From positions 1 to 38,199 of IMG/VR virus record IMGVR_UViG_3300030037_000002: a stretch of 38,199 bases of DNA, one strand, 5' to 3'. Positions 5,812 through 37,655 of the stretch are shown here, piece after piece (within the stretch, counting starts at the first letter, position 1; the number at the start of each line of letters is the position of its first letter). Position numbers and translations under genes: made by a program. The DNA comes from a virus (lineage: Duplodnaviria; Caudoviricetes). The notes below the pieces were generated by a model that searched no databases, was not told where the DNA came from, and saw only the letters and a list, made by a program, of their open reading frames with translations.

Positions 5812-6092
5812 TGTCTTATTCCTGCGGTACAGGTCGGTGCGGTTAATGCGTCACACACTGTGATGCGAACCTTTTCCCCGTTAACAAGGTAGCGAATTAT
5901 CCTACCCGGCTCGGATAATGTATCGATAGTGAACCAGTTAACCCCGTTATCAGGGGATGACTCAAACGATATATGCCCACCGTCTAACTCACCCGTAACA
6001 TAAAACATATAGTTACTTGATACAGGTACGTTCCACGGCTCTGTACTTTCATCGTTAACCGTGAATTCGTGAGTAGTCGATAAGACACCCAT
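5808..6092 (-). CDS. Small beta-sandwich virion protein (possible spike base)
   Basis: 94 aa, GELDGGHISFESSPDNGVNW, alternating hydrophobic strands. Confidence 0.5.
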   Translation of the reverse strand: MGVLSTTHEFTVNDESTEPWNVPVSSNYMFYVTGELDGGHISFESSPDNGVNWFTIDTLSEPGRIIRYLVNGEKVRITVCDALTAPTCTAGIRQ

Positions 6093-6247
6093 TACTGAGC
6101 GGCTTTTTTGGCAACTACTTCAACAAGTACACCAGTATCTAACAGTGATTGAGCGACCTTTTTGTCTACATCGCAAACTCCGTTTTCATCAAACTTCATT
6201 CCGTATACTGTCGCGTTTGCCGTTTTATTAGCTAATGATACTTTCAT
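6092..6247 (-). CDS. 51-aa hypothetical protein after the capsid gene
   Basis: AAGGA RBS, MKVSLANKTANATVYGMKFDENGVCDV..., TAATG coupling to the next gene. Confidence 0.65.
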   Translation of the reverse strand: MKVSLANKTANATVYGMKFDENGVCDVDKKVAQSLLDTGVLVEVVAKKAAQ

Positions 6248-6273
6248 GTTAAATTTCCTTGAGTGATTATTAT

Positions 6274-6298
6274 AAAAGGCACTCCGAGAAGTGCCCTT
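6274..6298 (-). terminator. Intrinsic terminator after the major capsid gene
   Basis: AAGGGCACT-tctcgg-AGTGCCTTTT on the minus strand. Confidence 0.75.
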
Positions 6299-6312
6299 GA
6301 AATAACTACTAC

Positions 6313-7251
6313 CTAGTTATTTAATGAAGGCAAGCGAGCTAAGCCGCGACGGTTAAAGTTAGCAAAGTTAGAGTAAGACTTAACCCGTACAATGCTTTCG
6401 TCTGCCGTCTCTTTAGCACCAACCATTTCTACATTGATGCCAACATCAGTGCCCGCAGGGTGAATCATTGAAGCGCCAATTTTACGGGTGCCATCATCCC
6501 AGCAACCGCCATACATTGAGCTTAATCCGCCACCTGTTAACGCTGCACCGTTAGCAGTTTCAGCAACAGATAAATAGTCGTTAACAAAGATTGGAATGTT
6601 GTTGTAAACATCTACATTGCGCGAGCGACCGTTACCCATATCAAACGCCATTGTCTCATTAACGCCACCTAGCGCACGCACAAGTGTACGGTAAGCATTG
6701 ATAATTTTTTGTGGAGCCATTAAGAAGTCCACTTCACCATCTTTAGCTTTGATAAGCGCAAGTAACTCGTCTAACAGTTCAAATGATAATGCTTGTCCAG
6801 CAGAAGCAGTAGTAAATTGACTTGCATCACACAAGGTATGCAATGAGTTCAAGTTAGCACCAGTGCCATCACCAGTTGCCATACCACCTTGCAGTAAGCG
6901 ACCCACCGATTTAGCTTTAGAGCTAACTTCAACAGCCATTTGATCAACGCCAGCAGAGCTTGATTGGGCAGCAACTAAGCCGTTCAATTCAGCATCACCG
7001 ATTGTGGTAGTTGATGTAAACACTTGCTGCACAGTTGTACTGGCCGCTTTTGCCGTAATGGTTGCGCCTACAGCTAAATGCTGAGCGTTACCTAATACGT
7101 TTTCTCGGTTATGAATGATGCCTTGCCCTTCGTATGAAGTCCAAGGGATAGCACCCCAGATGGGAGAGGTTGTAAAAATATCTTCTGCAACACCTTGATT
7201 AAGGTCATTGTGAATCAGTTTTTTTGCTTCAGCTAATGTTTGAGTAGCGAT
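6313..7251 (-). CDS. Major capsid protein, 312 aa, with an inferred ATC start
   Basis: The frame stays open 73 codons upstream of the GTG at 7032 and reads (I/M)ATQTLAEAKKLIHNDLNQGVAEDIFTTSPIWGAIPW, a typical capsid N-terminus; follows the scaffold; HK97-type C-terminus (IPIFVNDY, GLARL). Confidence 0.88.
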   Translation of the reverse strand: MATQTLAEAKKLIHNDLNQGVAEDIFTTSPIWGAIPWTSYEGQGIIHNRENVLGNAQHLAVGATITAKAASTTVQQVFTSTTTIGDAELNGLVAAQSSSAGVDQMAVEVSSKAKSVGRLLQGGMATGDGTGANLNSLHTLCDASQFTTASAGQALSFELLDELLALIKAKDGEVDFLMAPQKIINAYRTLVRALGGVNETMAFDMGNGRSRNVDVYNNIPIFVNDYLSVAETANGAALTGGGLSSMYGGCWDDGTRKIGASMIHPAGTDVGINVEMVGAKETADESIVRVKSYSNFANFNRRGLARLPSLNN

Positions 7252-7388
7252 AAGTTTCTGCCTTATAGTTTTAGTTTACGAGGCAAAAGTGCCTCAATAT
7301 TAAATATTGATATTAGCACTGCTAATGAGGTTTCTAATTGTTGATCACTCACCGAGTAACCATTAAGCCTATTATACTACTGTAGTTT

Positions 7389-7886
7389 TTACTTTACAAC
7401 TCGGCCATTGTTTGCGTAGTTGCCATGTATTTCTTTACGCTTCTGAATTATAGCCTTTTCAGCCTCTTTTATGCTATCAAACCTGCCTACAGTCAAGTTT
7501 TTTGTGCCTGTCCTTATTGCTGCCTTCCATCTATCGGTCTGCTTACAATATGAAACACCTTTTACGCCTGACGTATTACTTTTAGCTAGTGAGGCGTTTC
7601 TGTTGTTTTGCTGATAAGTTGCAGGTCGCAGGTTATCTATACTGTTATCTAGTCTGTCATTATTTCTATGGTCTAAGGTTTCTGGGTAGAACCCGTAATG
7701 ATACATATAGACAAGTCTATGGGCGCGACGATACTTCTTGTTTACCATTATTGCTCTGTAACCGTCAGATGTGACTGTCCCTGCTGGCTTGGTAATATCT
7801 ACGCGTGATTTATACGGGCGATTAATCCAGTAAAGATTACCGTCTTTATATGTGAATAGCTCTTTGACTTGCGATTGCGTAATCAT
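7389..7886 (-). CDS. HNH homing endonuclease with AP2-like C-terminal domain
   Basis: AHRLVY, LDHRNNDRLDNSIDNLR and NTSGVKGVS motifs; GAGGAG RBS favours the ATG at 7886. Confidence 0.92.
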   Translation of the reverse strand: MITQSQVKELFTYKDGNLYWINRPYKSRVDITKPAGTVTSDGYRAIMVNKKYRRAHRLVYMYHYGFYPETLDHRNNDRLDNSIDNLRPATYQQNNRNASLAKSNTSGVKGVSYCKQTDRWKAAIRTGTKNLTVGRFDSIKEAEKAIIQKRKEIHGNYANNGRVVK

Positions 7887-7918
7887 TGTAATACTCCTCA
7901 GCATTTCCTAATTTAAGG

Positions 7919-7970
7919 TTATGGCGGCCCAATTAGGGGTCGGGTTTTCGGGGTATCCCCCTAGCCATAA
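7919..7970 (-). ncRNA. Candidate structured RNA (three-way junction) upstream of the HNH gene
   Basis: Outer stem TTATGGC/GCCATAA, inner hairpins GGGG-ATA-CCCC and CCCGA/TTGGG joined by GAAAA; TGGTATAGT extended -10 just upstream. Confidence 0.5.
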
Positions 7971-7985
7971 GTTAACTATACCATA

Positions 7986-8684
7986 TTAACCCATTAATTT
8001 AGATAGGCCGTTAGTTAGCTTCTGGTGCGTTGATACGTTACCTTGCTGTGGCGTAGTGTTGTTATTACCTTGACCGTTACCCCCGTTTGACTGGATTTTA
8101 AATATTTCAGGCTGACCTGCAACAAACTCTGACACGGTTAAATTGCCATCAGCACCAGCCATAATGCCATCACCATTCATAGCGACCACTTGACCGTTAT
8201 CAATGCTAAACATACCTTTAACCTGTGACATTACAGATGCGAAAGCTTCAGGGTTAATTTTATGCTCACTGAATGCAGCGTTTGCAGCGCCCTCAATTTC
8301 ATATTTAGATATAGTACCAGCGTTTGTGGCTGTTAATGCGTTAAACTGTTCGTTAAGTGCATCATACTTAGTCGCCCATGCTGCCTCACTGTTTTTAGTG
8401 TGGTTAGCTAACAAAGTATCGAAATCTTTTTTATCAATAAGCTCCTGGTTCTGCAGTTGGCGTTCTTTCTCCATTACAGCGTTGTACTTTTCCATATCAA
8501 CATTTTCGAATTGCTTAGCGGTATTCATAAGTTCGATGTTCTTAGTACGAAAATCATCAACCTTCGATTTGTCGGTAGCACCTTCGACTTGTAATTGATA
8601 ACCATCACCAGCCATAGCATAGAAGCCTTTCTCTGCTTCAGATAGTTTGTCGAAATCTTCTGTACTCATTTTAAATTTTAACAT
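7986..8684 (-). CDS. Capsid scaffolding protein
   Basis: Coiled-coil, acidic, low-complexity SNGGNGQG tail; MLKF...Y...YQLQVEG N-terminus; upstream of the capsid gene. Confidence 0.85.
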   Translation of the reverse strand: MLKFKMSTEDFDKLSEAEKGFYAMAGDGYQLQVEGATDKSKVDDFRTKNIELMNTAKQFENVDMEKYNAVMEKERQLQNQELIDKKDFDTLLANHTKNSEAAWATKYDALNEQFNALTATNAGTISKYEIEGAANAAFSEHKINPEAFASVMSQVKGMFSIDNGQVVAMNGDGIMAGADGNLTVSEFVAGQPEIFKIQSNGGNGQGNNNTTPQQGNVSTHQKLTNGLSKLMG

Positions 8685-8722
8685 TTTTAATCACCGATTA
8701 AGTTTACTCACACTGTGAGTGT

Positions 8723-9760
8723 TTAAGTTTTATCCCAAGCGCTGGGATGTTTTGCTTTAAGTTGATCAAGAGTTAAAGCCTGACCACGTTCATTCACGAA
8801 TTTATCTAATGACAAACCGCCTTTTCTAAATAATTCTGCTTTCTTTTTACCTAGCACGTCAACCTGAAATGCTTTTGACTGTTTACCGAGCCAATCATTG
8901 TAAGTCTGGTCTGCTTTAACTGGCCCGTCCATACTAGCACGTTTACCGCCTATATTCTTTTTGTTAAATCCTTTTGCCGTACTGGTAACCTCATCCTCGA
9001 ACAATGGCGTAGTTGTTGAGCGACAATTATAATGTGCTGGTGGCATTGGCCCCTTACCAACTTTCCATACCTTACCGTCACGGCTTTGACACGTTGGCGA
9101 TGTACGACCATCTAGCGTACTCACCCACTCATAGTATGGGATTACATCAATGTTATCCTCAAACGTCTTATTCTTAGCTACTGAAGCTGTATGGCTTAAT
9201 GCAGTTCTAACCATGCGCTCAGCATTGGTGCGGGTAACATTTAATATTCCATTCTTATAATTCTGCGCCTTAGTGCCAACGATACCGCGAACTATTTCAG
9301 CAGTTGTTTGACCCTCATAGAACCCCATCGACACAGCATCCCGCACAGCTTTCGATTGCTTGACACTAAAGTCTTTCAGGTAATCTTTCAGCAGTAAGTT
9401 GTTAAACGGCCGAGCATTAACTGCTGCACTTAATTGTGCTGGCGCTGGTATAACCATTTCAAAGTCACTCACCTTACCAACTGTAGCCGCTGCAAACTCT
9501 GCCTCCTGCACTGCAAACATTTCTATTTGAGTATTTAATTCATCAGTAAAAGCAACTAACTCACCCTTAACTAAATCCTCCGTAAACTCTAATAAGCTTT
9601 TAATTCTAGCTTGTGATGTAACTGTATTAGTTTGCGTTAACTTATAGCGTAACTGCTGTGTTACACGCCTAAGATAAGGCAATAACCTATCAGATTGGTC
9701 GTTGTAGTATTGCTCTAAATAGTGAGCGTGTCTTGAGTATATATCGTTAATAGTAGGCAT
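8723..9760 (-). CDS. Minor head / head morphogenesis protein (Mu gpF / SPP1 gp7 family)
   Basis: AERMVRT, YEWVSTLDGRTSPTC and PPAHYNCRST motifs. Confidence 0.93.
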   Translation of the reverse strand: MPTINDIYSRHAHYLEQYYNDQSDRLLPYLRRVTQQLRYKLTQTNTVTSQARIKSLLEFTEDLVKGELVAFTDELNTQIEMFAVQEAEFAAATVGKVSDFEMVIPAPAQLSAAVNARPFNNLLLKDYLKDFSVKQSKAVRDAVSMGFYEGQTTAEIVRGIVGTKAQNYKNGILNVTRTNAERMVRTALSHTASVAKNKTFEDNIDVIPYYEWVSTLDGRTSPTCQSRDGKVWKVGKGPMPPAHYNCRSTTTPLFEDEVTSTAKGFNKKNIGGKRASMDGPVKADQTYNDWLGKQSKAFQVDVLGKKKAELFRKGGLSLDKFVNERGQALTLDQLKAKHPSAWDKT

Positions 9761-26689: not shown

Positions 26690-27394
26690 ATGAAAGTTTT
26701 AATAGCGTGTGAATACTCAGGAAGGGTAAGGGATGCATTTACAGCAAAAGGTCATGATGCTTTAAGTTGCGATCTCCTTGGGTCGGACTCTCCAGGTAAG
26801 CATTACAAAGGCGACATGTTTAATTTAGATCTTGAATCGTTTGATTTGATTATCGCGCATCCTCCTTGTACTTTTTTAACTGGGTCGGCAGAATGGGCTT
26901 TTGATGATAAACCAATGATCCAAGGCAAACCAAGAAACATCAAACCAGGAACATTAATCGGAGATGCAAGGCGCAAAGCTAGAGAAGATGCTTTGTTATT
27001 TGTTGATAAGATATGGGCACTGCCTGTAAAGAAAATTTGCATTGAAAATCCAGTGGGTGTAATTACAAAAAGATTACCTCACATGGGTAAACCTCAATAT
27101 ATATAACAATATTGGTTTGGTGAAAACGCTAGCAAAAAGACGGGATTGTGGCTAAAGGGCTTGCCAAGGCTAACTCCAACAAATCAAATTGAAGGGCGCA
27201 TGGTTTGTTGTGGTCAGGTTGTTACCGATCGTTACGGGTGCCCTAACTGCTGCGGTGATAAAAATCCAGTTTATCGGTGGGACAATCAAACTAATTCAGG
27301 GCAAAATAAATTACCTCCTTCAAAAGATCGGTGGAAAATAAGAAGCACGACACCGCAAGGTATAGCTAACGCAATGGCTGATCAATGGGGATAG
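26690..27394 (+). pseudogene. Phage-type C5 cytosine methyltransferase-like gene interrupted by an in-frame TAA at 27104-27106
   Basis: KVLIACEYSG, DLIIAHPPCT and IENP before the stop; QYWFG..SKKTGLWLKGLP...RSTTPQGIANAMADQWG after it in the same frame. Confidence 0.8.
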
Positions 27395-35769: not shown

Positions 35770-37428
35770 CTAGCTCCTCATTTGTATGACGTTCAACGCC
35801 TCTGCTATTTGCTCGATTATATCATCTGAGGTGTTAGTTCCCAACCGTACATCAGAGGTTGTCGATCCTGTTGATGTTGACTCGGTAACTTCTAAGCCAG
35901 CAGTTTCAGGCTCAAAGTTTTGTTGTGCTGGTGCTGATACTGCCCCTGCTCCTGATGATATTGATCCGCCACCCTTTGATGCGCCTGATAAATTAGCAAG
36001 CTGAGCAACACCTGAAGCTATAACCAAGCCACTCGTAACAAGTGCGGCAGGATAAGGCAAGTCAGAAAATTGTCGTGTTACCGCTGCTGCAGTGTTAGCT
36101 ACTATCATACCAGCCTGTATCGCTTTGTTATCTTCAAAGGCTGAGTTAGCTATCGACAATGCAGAAGATGCAGCGCCCGCCATTGATGATACCTTATCAA
36201 GTTCAGACTTTTTGAGGTCTTTTGCTTCGCCTGTTTTACTTGCTGAATACTGCTTTGATAGGTCGAGTTGTTTCTTGGCAAAATCTTCCTCGCTGAGTAG
36301 TTTGCTATCTAGCATAGCCTTATGGACAGCCAACTCTTTAAAATACAACTCTTCAGTGGTTTCCTGCCCTGTGAATTTGATTTCCTTTATTAACTCTTGG
36401 AATGTTGCTTCATCACGCAAGCGCTGTTCGTGTAATAGTTGCGCATTTACTAGTGCAGGATCACCTTCTGTTTGCATACTAGCTATGTCAAACATTTCCT
36501 TATTCGCTTGAACTTCTGCCCTTTTTGCCTCAGCTAATTCAAACGATAATCTTATAGCGTCCCTCTGTGTGTCGTTAGCGCCAACTAATTCAGCCTTGTA
36601 TAGCTGAACTTGTAACGCTGACATTCCGTAAGTATTAGCCAGTAATACATTGGTTGTGACTAACTCGTCAACAACATCAGCTTGGTTTAGTAGCTCAGCA
36701 TTTTGCGCTTCTATACCTGCCATCACAGCAGATAAAACACTACCATCTGGCGATAGGTCTTTGTAAGCTGTTTTAAGGTCTGATAGCGCCAACTTTAAAG
36801 CCTGAATAGTCCCTGTATACTTTGATGTTTGCGCTGATATTTCTTCAGTTGATGAAAATAGGTTCAAGCTTGTTCTATAGTCAATCAATGCTGCTTCAGT
36901 ATCTTTTAGCGCTTTTTCTTGTGCGATTATTTCGGCAGCAATAACACCTAGTGCTAGGCTTTTTGCAGCCTCATCAAGTTCATTAAATCTTTTTACCAGC
37001 TGAGGTACTGTTTCTGCTGTTTCTTTTAGCTCAACATTAACACCACTAAAGGCGAACGCCATGCCTACAATCGAAGCAGTTATACCAACAACAGCACCCA
37101 ATAACGGAGCACCTAATACAAAACCTAAATCCGCACCCTGTTGAGACAATGCAACCATTGCTGATTGACCGCCTTGTATTTGACCAACGAATTGCTGTAC
37201 CTGTATACCAGCCATGCCAGCAGACCGACCAACACCAGACAACGCAGTATTAACACCCTTTGCCGACTTAGATAGCTTTGTTCCACTATCATTCATAGCC
37301 TTCATAGAAGTATCAACGCGATTAACGCTATCACCTACATCATCGAGATTGTTTTTGGTGGCTTTTAGTTTGGCGTCAAGCTTATCTGTCCTTCCGTCAA
37401 CCTCAACTATTAATGATTCAGTAGTGAT
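35770..37428 (-). CDS. Tail tape measure protein, 552 aa, with an inferred ATC start
   Basis: AGIQVQQFVGQIQGGQSAMVALSQQGADL TMP motif; frame open 41 codons above the first ATG, reading (I/M)TTESLIVEVDGRT; GGGGGTGAT RBS. Confidence 0.88.
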   Translation of the reverse strand: MTTESLIVEVDGRTDKLDAKLKATKNNLDDVGDSVNRVDTSMKAMNDSGTKLSKSAKGVNTALSGVGRSAGMAGIQVQQFVGQIQGGQSAMVALSQQGADLGFVLGAPLLGAVVGITASIVGMAFAFSGVNVELKETAETVPQLVKRFNELDEAAKSLALGVIAAEIIAQEKALKDTEAALIDYRTSLNLFSSTEEISAQTSKYTGTIQALKLALSDLKTAYKDLSPDGSVLSAVMAGIEAQNAELLNQADVVDELVTTNVLLANTYGMSALQVQLYKAELVGANDTQRDAIRLSFELAEAKRAEVQANKEMFDIASMQTEGDPALVNAQLLHEQRLRDEATFQELIKEIKFTGQETTEELYFKELAVHKAMLDSKLLSEEDFAKKQLDLSKQYSASKTGEAKDLKKSELDKVSSMAGAASSALSIANSAFEDNKAIQAGMIVANTAAAVTRQFSDLPYPAALVTSGLVIASGVAQLANLSGASKGGGSISSGAGAVSAPAQQNFEPETAGLEVTESTSTGSTTSDVRLGTNTSDDIIEQIAEALNVIQMRS

Positions 37429-37655
37429 ACATCACCCCCGTTTTCTTTACGCTGAAATGATAATAAAAAGAATAAGTCAGGCTCATTTGTTTGCTCACTA
37501 TCCATTAGGTGTGATATTTCGGAGTAGTCCATATTCCAAGCTTCAGAGGGTGCTATCTTCAAATGATTTACGCATAATTTGAAGTACCCCCAAAAGTCAA
37601 AATCAAACCTTTCTGTTTTCTGTTTGATTACTCGGATGTAACTGGCTTTTTTTTT
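37410..37655 (-). CDS. Tail assembly chaperone GT extension (-1 frame)
   Basis: After A AAA AAG the -1 frame reads ASYIRVIKQKTERFDFDFWGYFKLCVNHLKIAPSEAWNMDYSEI...SLLNH; PSEAWxM is gpT-like. Confidence 0.8.
   Translation of the reverse strand, partial: KKKASYIRVIKQKTERFDFDFWGYFKLCVNHLKIAPSEAWNMDYSEISHLMDSEQTNEPDLFFLLSFQRKENGGDVSLLNH

Follow-up and report, generated by a model that had tools for sequence, protein, structure and literature searches.

In Corndog, Firecracker and YungJamal, mycobacteriophages of Cluster O, an HNH gene lies upstream of the tape-measure gene, which has ACG instead of ATG (Cresawn et al. 2015, PMC4351075). For Corndog, where the HNH gene is inserted beside the ACG, translation of the tape measure was reported to begin at this codon or above it, and expression showed no obvious loss; translation from the near-cognate codon in this group was shown by mass spectrometry, growth was normal, and nuclease immunity was not proposed in the sections of that paper cited here (PMC4351075). 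Free-standing endonucleases have been described as cutting relatives that lack them at sites distant from their own gene, with co-conversion of the flanks, as for the seg and mob genes of T4-like phages ('intronless homing'); the homing targets listed in the cited part of that account are coding regions or intergenic tRNA DNA, none of them a start codon (PMC2988022). HNH-AP2 ('IPA-HNH') homing endonuclease genes, in which an HNH_3 domain is followed by a C-terminal AP2-like domain, have been reported beside essential genes (PMC10448857), and the term 'start codon' is absent from the main text of that paper. I-HmuI and I-HmuII cut alleles with the intron as well as those lacking it (PMC3428280); self-immunity is thus no requirement for nicking HNH enzymes. 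The site of I-HmuI is over 25 bp long (PMC2175346). The bacterial genes infC and pcnB, with AUU/AUC starts, have a near-cognate codon behind a Shine–Dalgarno (SD) sequence that is read by the host machinery, and in infC the codon is described as widely conserved and as serving IF3 feedback (PMC5499595). In E. coli reporters AUC gave about 0.02–3% of AUG, and GUG and UUG 10–100% (10.1101/063800). No paper on an AUC-started capsid gene or on start-codon immunity was found among open-licence PMC and bioRxiv main texts.

The window analysed here is a stretch of 38,199 bases, a complete phage genome with terminal repeats and one capsid gene. Its capsid locus resembles the tape-measure locus of the Corndog group: immediately upstream of a virion gene that is essential stands an HNH gene that is optional, and a near-cognate codon occurs where the relatives have ATG. 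The differences are that the codon is ATC, that the gene encodes the most abundant virion protein, and that nuclease and start are separated by a promoter and a structured leader; transfer from one capsid lineage to another is also shown, and a further ATC start has a 19-mer in common with the first. As with seg and mob, an optional intergenic nuclease sits between conserved genes and appears to have spread with co-conversion, the activity of the window's enzyme being predicted only; as with the described HNH-AP2 genes, HNH_3 and a C-terminal AP2-like domain are combined beside essential genes. I-HmuI differs from the window's endonuclease in being intron-encoded and cutting both alleles. The near-cognate codon behind an SD recalls infC and pcnB, whereas the window carries, in contrast to infC, a rare allele on a mobile cassette, for a protein that must be made in hundreds of copies. 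Corndog already provides a published case of an HNH insertion next to a near-cognate start; new are the transfer between lineages, the 19-mer common to both ATC starts and the shifted leader. We give an even chance to the following reading: the capsid ATC travels with the HNH-AP2 cassette and is likely an immunity allele against its nuclease, cleavage being a prediction, and host ribosomes likely start at the AUC. If this is right, DNA-level conflict and not translational design picks the near-useless start codons found at times in essential phage genes. The window would also offer a natural system in which to ask how AUC can supply a protein required in hundreds of copies. Features are collected in table 1.

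Table 1. Features of the capsid and tape-measure regions, in positions of the window.
Feature	Positions	Strand	Basis
Major capsid protein gene, 312 codons from ATC to stop at 6313	6313..7251	-	phrog_212 profile match
GTG chosen by gene callers (239-aa product), not the real capsid start	7030..7032	-	relatives alignment
19-mer over capsid start, candidate endonuclease target in its ATG form	7234..7252	-	motif search
ATC where capsid relatives have the ATG start codon	7249..7251	-	sequence, relatives alignment
Conserved structured leader of capsid gene	7252..7326	-	alignment, folding
Shine–Dalgarno TAAGG, 9-nt spacer to ATC	7261..7265	-	sequence
In-frame TAA, rules out a start further upstream	7276..7278	-	nine codons above ATC
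Sigma-70-like promoter TTGTAA-17-TATAAT, overlaps endonuclease stop	7371..7399	-	similar motifs at same distance in relatives
Free-standing HNH-AP2 endonuclease gene, likely start ATG 7886	7389..7904	-	domain matches, HNH residues intact
int-alpA RNA motif, directly upstream of endonuclease	7906..7971	-	RF02996, 39.7 bits, above gathering score
Head scaffolding protein gene, left neighbour of cassette	7986..8684	-	phrog_206
Tape-measure gene, begins at ATC 37428-37426, no canonical start at homologous position	35770..37428	-	frame screen, homologues
19-mer at tape-measure start, 16/19 identical to capsid-start 19-mer	37411..37429	-	motif search

The capsid product was identified as a major head protein (phrog_212, E 2e-42); its best match in a cultured phage is 44%, and no solved structure related to it by sequence was found. 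Read from 7251, the frame gives (I)ATQTLAEAKK..., as initiated product (M)ATQTLAEAKK, and no ATG, GTG or TTG comes before the GTG at 7032, which lies 73 codons below the ATC. The sequence-only reading had described this frame as open above 7032 with no canonical start and with ATC behind TAAGG, and this was borne out: a contig of the seawater run X1 is identical to the window over 6000–9000 (0 differences; mean word depth 73.8), X1 being possibly the source of the window DNA and the comparison having been made with contigs, and ATC stands at the same capsid codon in L016, a contig with 65% nucleotide identity over 2 kb and 73% capsid protein identity. The ATC at 7251–7249 is confirmed as real and is no sequencing slip. 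A start at GTG 7032 was rejected, as it would drop the 19 invariant columns of the 32-sequence capsid alignment that fall in the 73 codons above it, and no SD-like motif is present there. In a contig 97% identical to the window (X2), 16 of 17 changed codons are synonymous (18 of 22 differences listed), including all four listed differences inside the 73 codons; the capsid gene is therefore under purifying selection and the 73 codons are coding. The frame thus has a near-cognate codon at the homologous start, properly spaced from an SD, and no canonical alternative. Since position and SD spacing match those of the ATG in 76 relatives and no usable alternative start exists, capsid translation most likely begins at AUC 7251, in agreement with the non-canonical start first proposed. 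A contig from one RNA run covers 6313–6550 of the gene. Gene callers truncate window-type capsids to 239 aa (P0028, P0122) and shorten the tape measure by 41 codons, so such ATC alleles are invisible in protein databases.

Capsid loci were gathered from viral contigs, metagenomes and genomes; three without a 5' end were dropped and duplicates merged, leaving 78. The start was ATG in 76, counting L143 with its ATG one codon later, and ATC in two, the window and L016. The comparison with homologous starts, on which the sequence-only reading had also leaned, gave ATG in nearly all, the ATC being shared by a relative with 73% capsid identity. An HNH-AP2 endonuclease gene, absent from that earlier account, was found upstream in both ATC loci and in none of the 69 assessable ATG loci (Fisher p = 4e-4; both ATC loci share one origin, and each comes from one contig), the seven further ATG loci having too little upstream DNA for assessment. 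The endonuclease is accordingly an optional, intergenic element between conserved genes, present in two and absent from 69 of the 78 loci, with seven not assessable. Within −20 to +36 of the start, +3 is the sole position with a base common to both ATC carriers but found in at most 5% of 75 ATG relatives; C at +3 occurs in none of the 75. Pattern scans of viral contigs, metagenomes and genomes for further ATC capsid alleles gave only L111, which is the window's own genome, and L016. Three genome hits and two of 17 metagenome hits (L110 and L113) were discarded as ATC capsids on finding no capsid match. Two scans for the endonuclease, covering 145 loci, gave none adjoining a gene of this capsid family.

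The endonuclease matched the HNH_3 domain with E 3e-12 and AP2 with 32.4 bits, slightly below the cut-off of 33.3, and the H, DH and N residues of the HNH motif, invariant in the alignment, are intact. Its only solved relative is I-HmuI of phage SPO1 (PDB 1U3E), matched over the catalytic part only (E 5e-4). An intact nuclease domain is thus combined with a DNA-binding domain, as in free-standing homing endonucleases, and from its domains, its setting and its lateral spread the cassette's enzyme is likely one of these (intronless homing). The int-alpA motif is also present in L016; it was found upstream of the nuclease in only 1/16 other HNH loci and is not a fixed part of such loci. It may control nuclease expression; no function was found in the literature on the motif. 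Directly 5' of HNH-AP2 genes it was seen in three loci, the window (7971-7906, minus strand), L125 (1221-1155) and L055 (1921-1986). A 12-mer at its 5' edge (about 7977-7966, minus strand) shares 11 of its 12 bases with the context of the capsid start, though it has ATG; it could be chance or a nuclease operator, and it is not kept in L016. The leader between endonuclease and ATC is about 115 bases long. The promoter-like motif at 7399–7371 is not above chance taken alone (4 found, 4.0 expected), and promoter and terminator scans of the window stayed at chance level. Other insertions in the scaffold–capsid spacer were a DNA methyltransferase gene in L006 (2125-2805) and two reverse-strand ORFs upstream of 2001 in L160; the capsid start is ATG in both.

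In two capsid lineages, not sisters of each other, the space from scaffold to capsid holds the int-alpA RNA, endonuclease, promoter, leader and ATC. In a capsid tree of residues 13–168 (30 rows) the window joins P0121, and L016 joins P0099 and P0116; a tree forcing both ATC capsids into one clade was rejected (p-AU 2e-35). The P0121 capsid is 99% identical to that of the window and 312 aa long with a called Met start, on which the ATG of the window's sister allele rests. Between the window and L016, identity is 63% in the scaffold, 60% in the endonuclease and 68% in the capsid body, and rises to 84% in the leader (−78 to −1) and 94% in the first 11 capsid codons. The X2 contig, which shares the T148V change of the P0121 capsid, follows the window up to 7267 and then enters sequence with a motif of endonuclease-free leaders. 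Because the ATC carriers are not capsid sisters and the window's 99% sister starts normally, endonuclease, leader and ATC are concluded to travel together as one cassette. The rejected ATC clade, the tract from −78 to +33 and the X2 junction at 7267 are what lateral spread with co-conversion would leave. Among 197 ATG pairs at 60–70% CDS identity, leader identity averaged 0.60 with a maximum of 0.875, against 0.84 for the window and L016, so leaders also shuffle among ATG phages without a nuclease.

Element 2 of the leader (7295-7289) has two possible partners, element 1 (about 7319-7315) and an anti-SD (7285-7280); the anti-SD can instead pair with the SD. Two pairs of the anti-SD/SD helix are kept in 25/25 leaders, in ATG and ATC phages alike, which shows that translational control of the capsid exists. 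No Rfam family matched the leader; with 24 related loci aligned to the window (alignment A3), it may be a new cis-regulatory motif. A C–A mismatch in the SD-blocking helix occurs in exactly the two ATC leaders, and in these two the SD-freeing helix, compared by register-free duplex energies, is the strongest of the 25 (−11.1 and −10.3 kcal/mol). The whole-leader opening energies of the ATC alleles rank 5th and 9th of 29, within the ATG range. It is suggested from these models that the ATC leaders are tilted to the SD-open form as compensation, a tilt with one origin only. The tight translational control inferred earlier from the start codon therefore stands in part: the conserved SD-sequestering leader and the ATC of the tape measure favour it, but no support was obtained for AUC as the device by which the family controls its capsid, as ATG opens 76/78 capsid genes and ATG relatives have the leader switch as well.

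The second ATC start was found by screening all long frames and then inspecting the sequence. At the tape-measure gene an SD-like run is followed by ATC, giving (M)TTESLIVE, and homologues begin MTTESLIVE at that residue. The same ATC is present in G003 and in G015/G016; in each a stop in frame lies one or two codons before it, and upstream no endonuclease is present. G003 is a complete genome with a capsid ATG and only an unrelated nuclease gene; G015/G016 are fragments. In two other close orthologues (G002 and G004) the tape measure begins with ATG, and 11 more distant hits had ATG near the N-terminus or were not tape-measure starts. The tape-measure ATC is thus conserved in three lineages, two of them without a capsid-side nuclease, and its presence in G003 and G015/G016 means that AUC is kept without the HNH-AP2 nuclease. 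In G003 a different nuclease-like gene with an AP2-like end lies between lysis genes (L310, 1390-2115). The tape-measure ATC (window 37428-37426; also L288, L290 and L291) lies within the last codons of the frameshifted tail-chaperone frame. Near the end of the tail assembly chaperone gene (37660-37410, minus strand) an A-rich run is followed by an ATG-less frame overlapping the tape-measure start, arranged as for a lambda G/GT-type frameshift.

When the genome was searched with the capsid-start 19-mer at up to three mismatches, the one other match was the tape-measure ATC start, against none in 100 shuffles. Over the 15 bases downstream of the start, the tape measure matches the capsid at 12/15, and 43 other gene starts at no more than 8/15; of the 45 starts listed, only these two are ATC, the 43 others being ATG or GTG. 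The G015 tape-measure start is without the 19-mer, and the ATG start of G002 matches the capsid start at about 10/15. Similar N-termini explain part of the likeness between the capsid and tape-measure starts.

A crude screen of the 123 distinct HNH-AP2 loci for which downstream DNA was available gave three SD-plus-non-canonical candidates, of which only L247 looked real, the other two being unlike gene starts; most HNH-AP2 nucleases therefore have no AUC neighbour. In L247 (752-1012), just after the stop of a related HNH-AP2 nuclease, AAGGAG is followed after 7 nt by ATC at the codon where homologues begin MAIK or MGIK. The gene is small and unrelated to the capsid; in four homologue clusters the called protein begins at an inner Met and has 44 residues. 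Neither PHROGs nor cultured phages gave a match for the protein.

The proposed course of events is as follows. The nuclease would recognise the conserved stretch of SD, start and first codons in endonuclease-free phages, the start region being among the most conserved DNA adjoining the insertion site of the cassette. In a mixed infection it would nick or cut this target, and repair would copy the cassette with a flanking tract into the recipient. If the G of ATG is needed for cutting, carriers would hold C at +3; GTG or TTG, though better translated, would not be picked because a first-position change leaves the G. AUC, at 0.02–3% of AUG, is not what selection on translation would choose; removing a base on which the nuclease depends would favour it. 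At the start of the tape measure, the near-copy may be a second site under the same pressure; AUC would be cheap for the low-copy tape measure and could outlast the nuclease there, and for the capsid would be kept only with the nuclease. Capsid output is predicted to be rescued by its own promoter and by a leader shifted to the SD-open fold. Against immunity stand the two capsid-ATC lineages only, the nuclease-free tape-measure ATC and the heavy cost of AUC for a capsid. A stronger version, tentative and rather doubtful, is that the HNH-AP2 nuclease reads the start-codon G within a site of about 19 bp and forced both capsid and tape measure onto AUC, with the two-state leader of the capsid re-tuned. 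Were it true, start codons would be recurrent homing targets, and many phage AUC and ACG starts would be immunity scars hidden by gene callers.

Unlikely, yet the most serious competitor, is that the AUC is a passenger of the mobile cassette, having arisen once in a leader already tuned for AUC and been co-converted within the repair tract; the tuning would have damped capsid output from the extra promoter or reflect drift in an AUC-tolerant host, and any immunity would come from other differences. The association and tree data fit such hitch-hiking, the ATC leader differs from ATG leaders elsewhere too, as in the anti-SD, and the phage family already runs a tape-measure gene from ATC without the nuclease. 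AUC efficiency is moreover strongly context-dependent, lacZ having fallen only two- to three-fold in one report (PMC5499595). GTG, TTG or a weaker SD would have damped output more cheaply, however, and hitch-hiking does not single out +3 as the only carrier-specific base around the capsid start, the recurrence of the same G-to-C beside a related nuclease in an unrelated gene (L247), or the 16/19 bases shared by the window's two ATC starts.

We regard it as improbable that AUC starts form a translational gate on virion assembly, with one RNA motif common to capsid and tape measure and late activation of both through a phage factor or weakened IF3 proofreading. Such a gate would account for two structural genes that start at ATC and share the 19-mer, and for the conserved two-state capsid leader; IF3 discrimination is reported to be temperature-sensitive (PMC5499595), and many ORFs of the genome, without known function, could supply the factor. 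But the capsid starts with ATG in 76/78 loci, including phages with a tape-measure ATC, the capsid ATC tracks the nuclease and not the phage lineage, and most of the shared motif falls within coding sequence, G015 having lost it. Phage-altered initiation fidelity late in infection, the other consequence drawn by the sequence-only reading, is not supported: the window holds 0 tRNA genes, and no initiation-factor-like hit was obtained among the ORFs scanned, many of them without any hit. Of the 45 listed starts 43 are canonical, with ATC at capsid and tape measure.

That translation of the capsid does not begin at AUC at all is very improbable; in this view an AUG would come from splicing, the insert acting as an intron, or from ribosomes bypassing out of the endonuclease gene. 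The ATG-containing 12-mer at the int-alpA edge, matching 11 of 12 bases, could serve such a mechanism, but is not kept in L016; the Corndog authors left bypassing open, but no spliced product was seen for Corndog (both PMC4351075). No group I or II intron model matched at E up to 5, so no group I core with splice junctions restoring an AUG was found, nuclease and ATC are separated by a promoter-like site and by the leader and SD usual in the family, and an in-frame stop lies nine codons above the ATC. An assembly error or dead capsid gene is largely refuted: the only run covering the whole stretch may be the window's source, and contigs rather than raw reads were compared, but X1 shows no variant at a depth of 73.8, the 65%-identical contig has the same ATC, the complete genome has a single capsid gene, and 16/17 changed codons against X2 are synonymous.

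Elsewhere in the window, a DNA methyltransferase-like gene (26690-27394, plus strand; phrog_757 matched by both halves) is interrupted by one in-frame TAA at 27104-27106.
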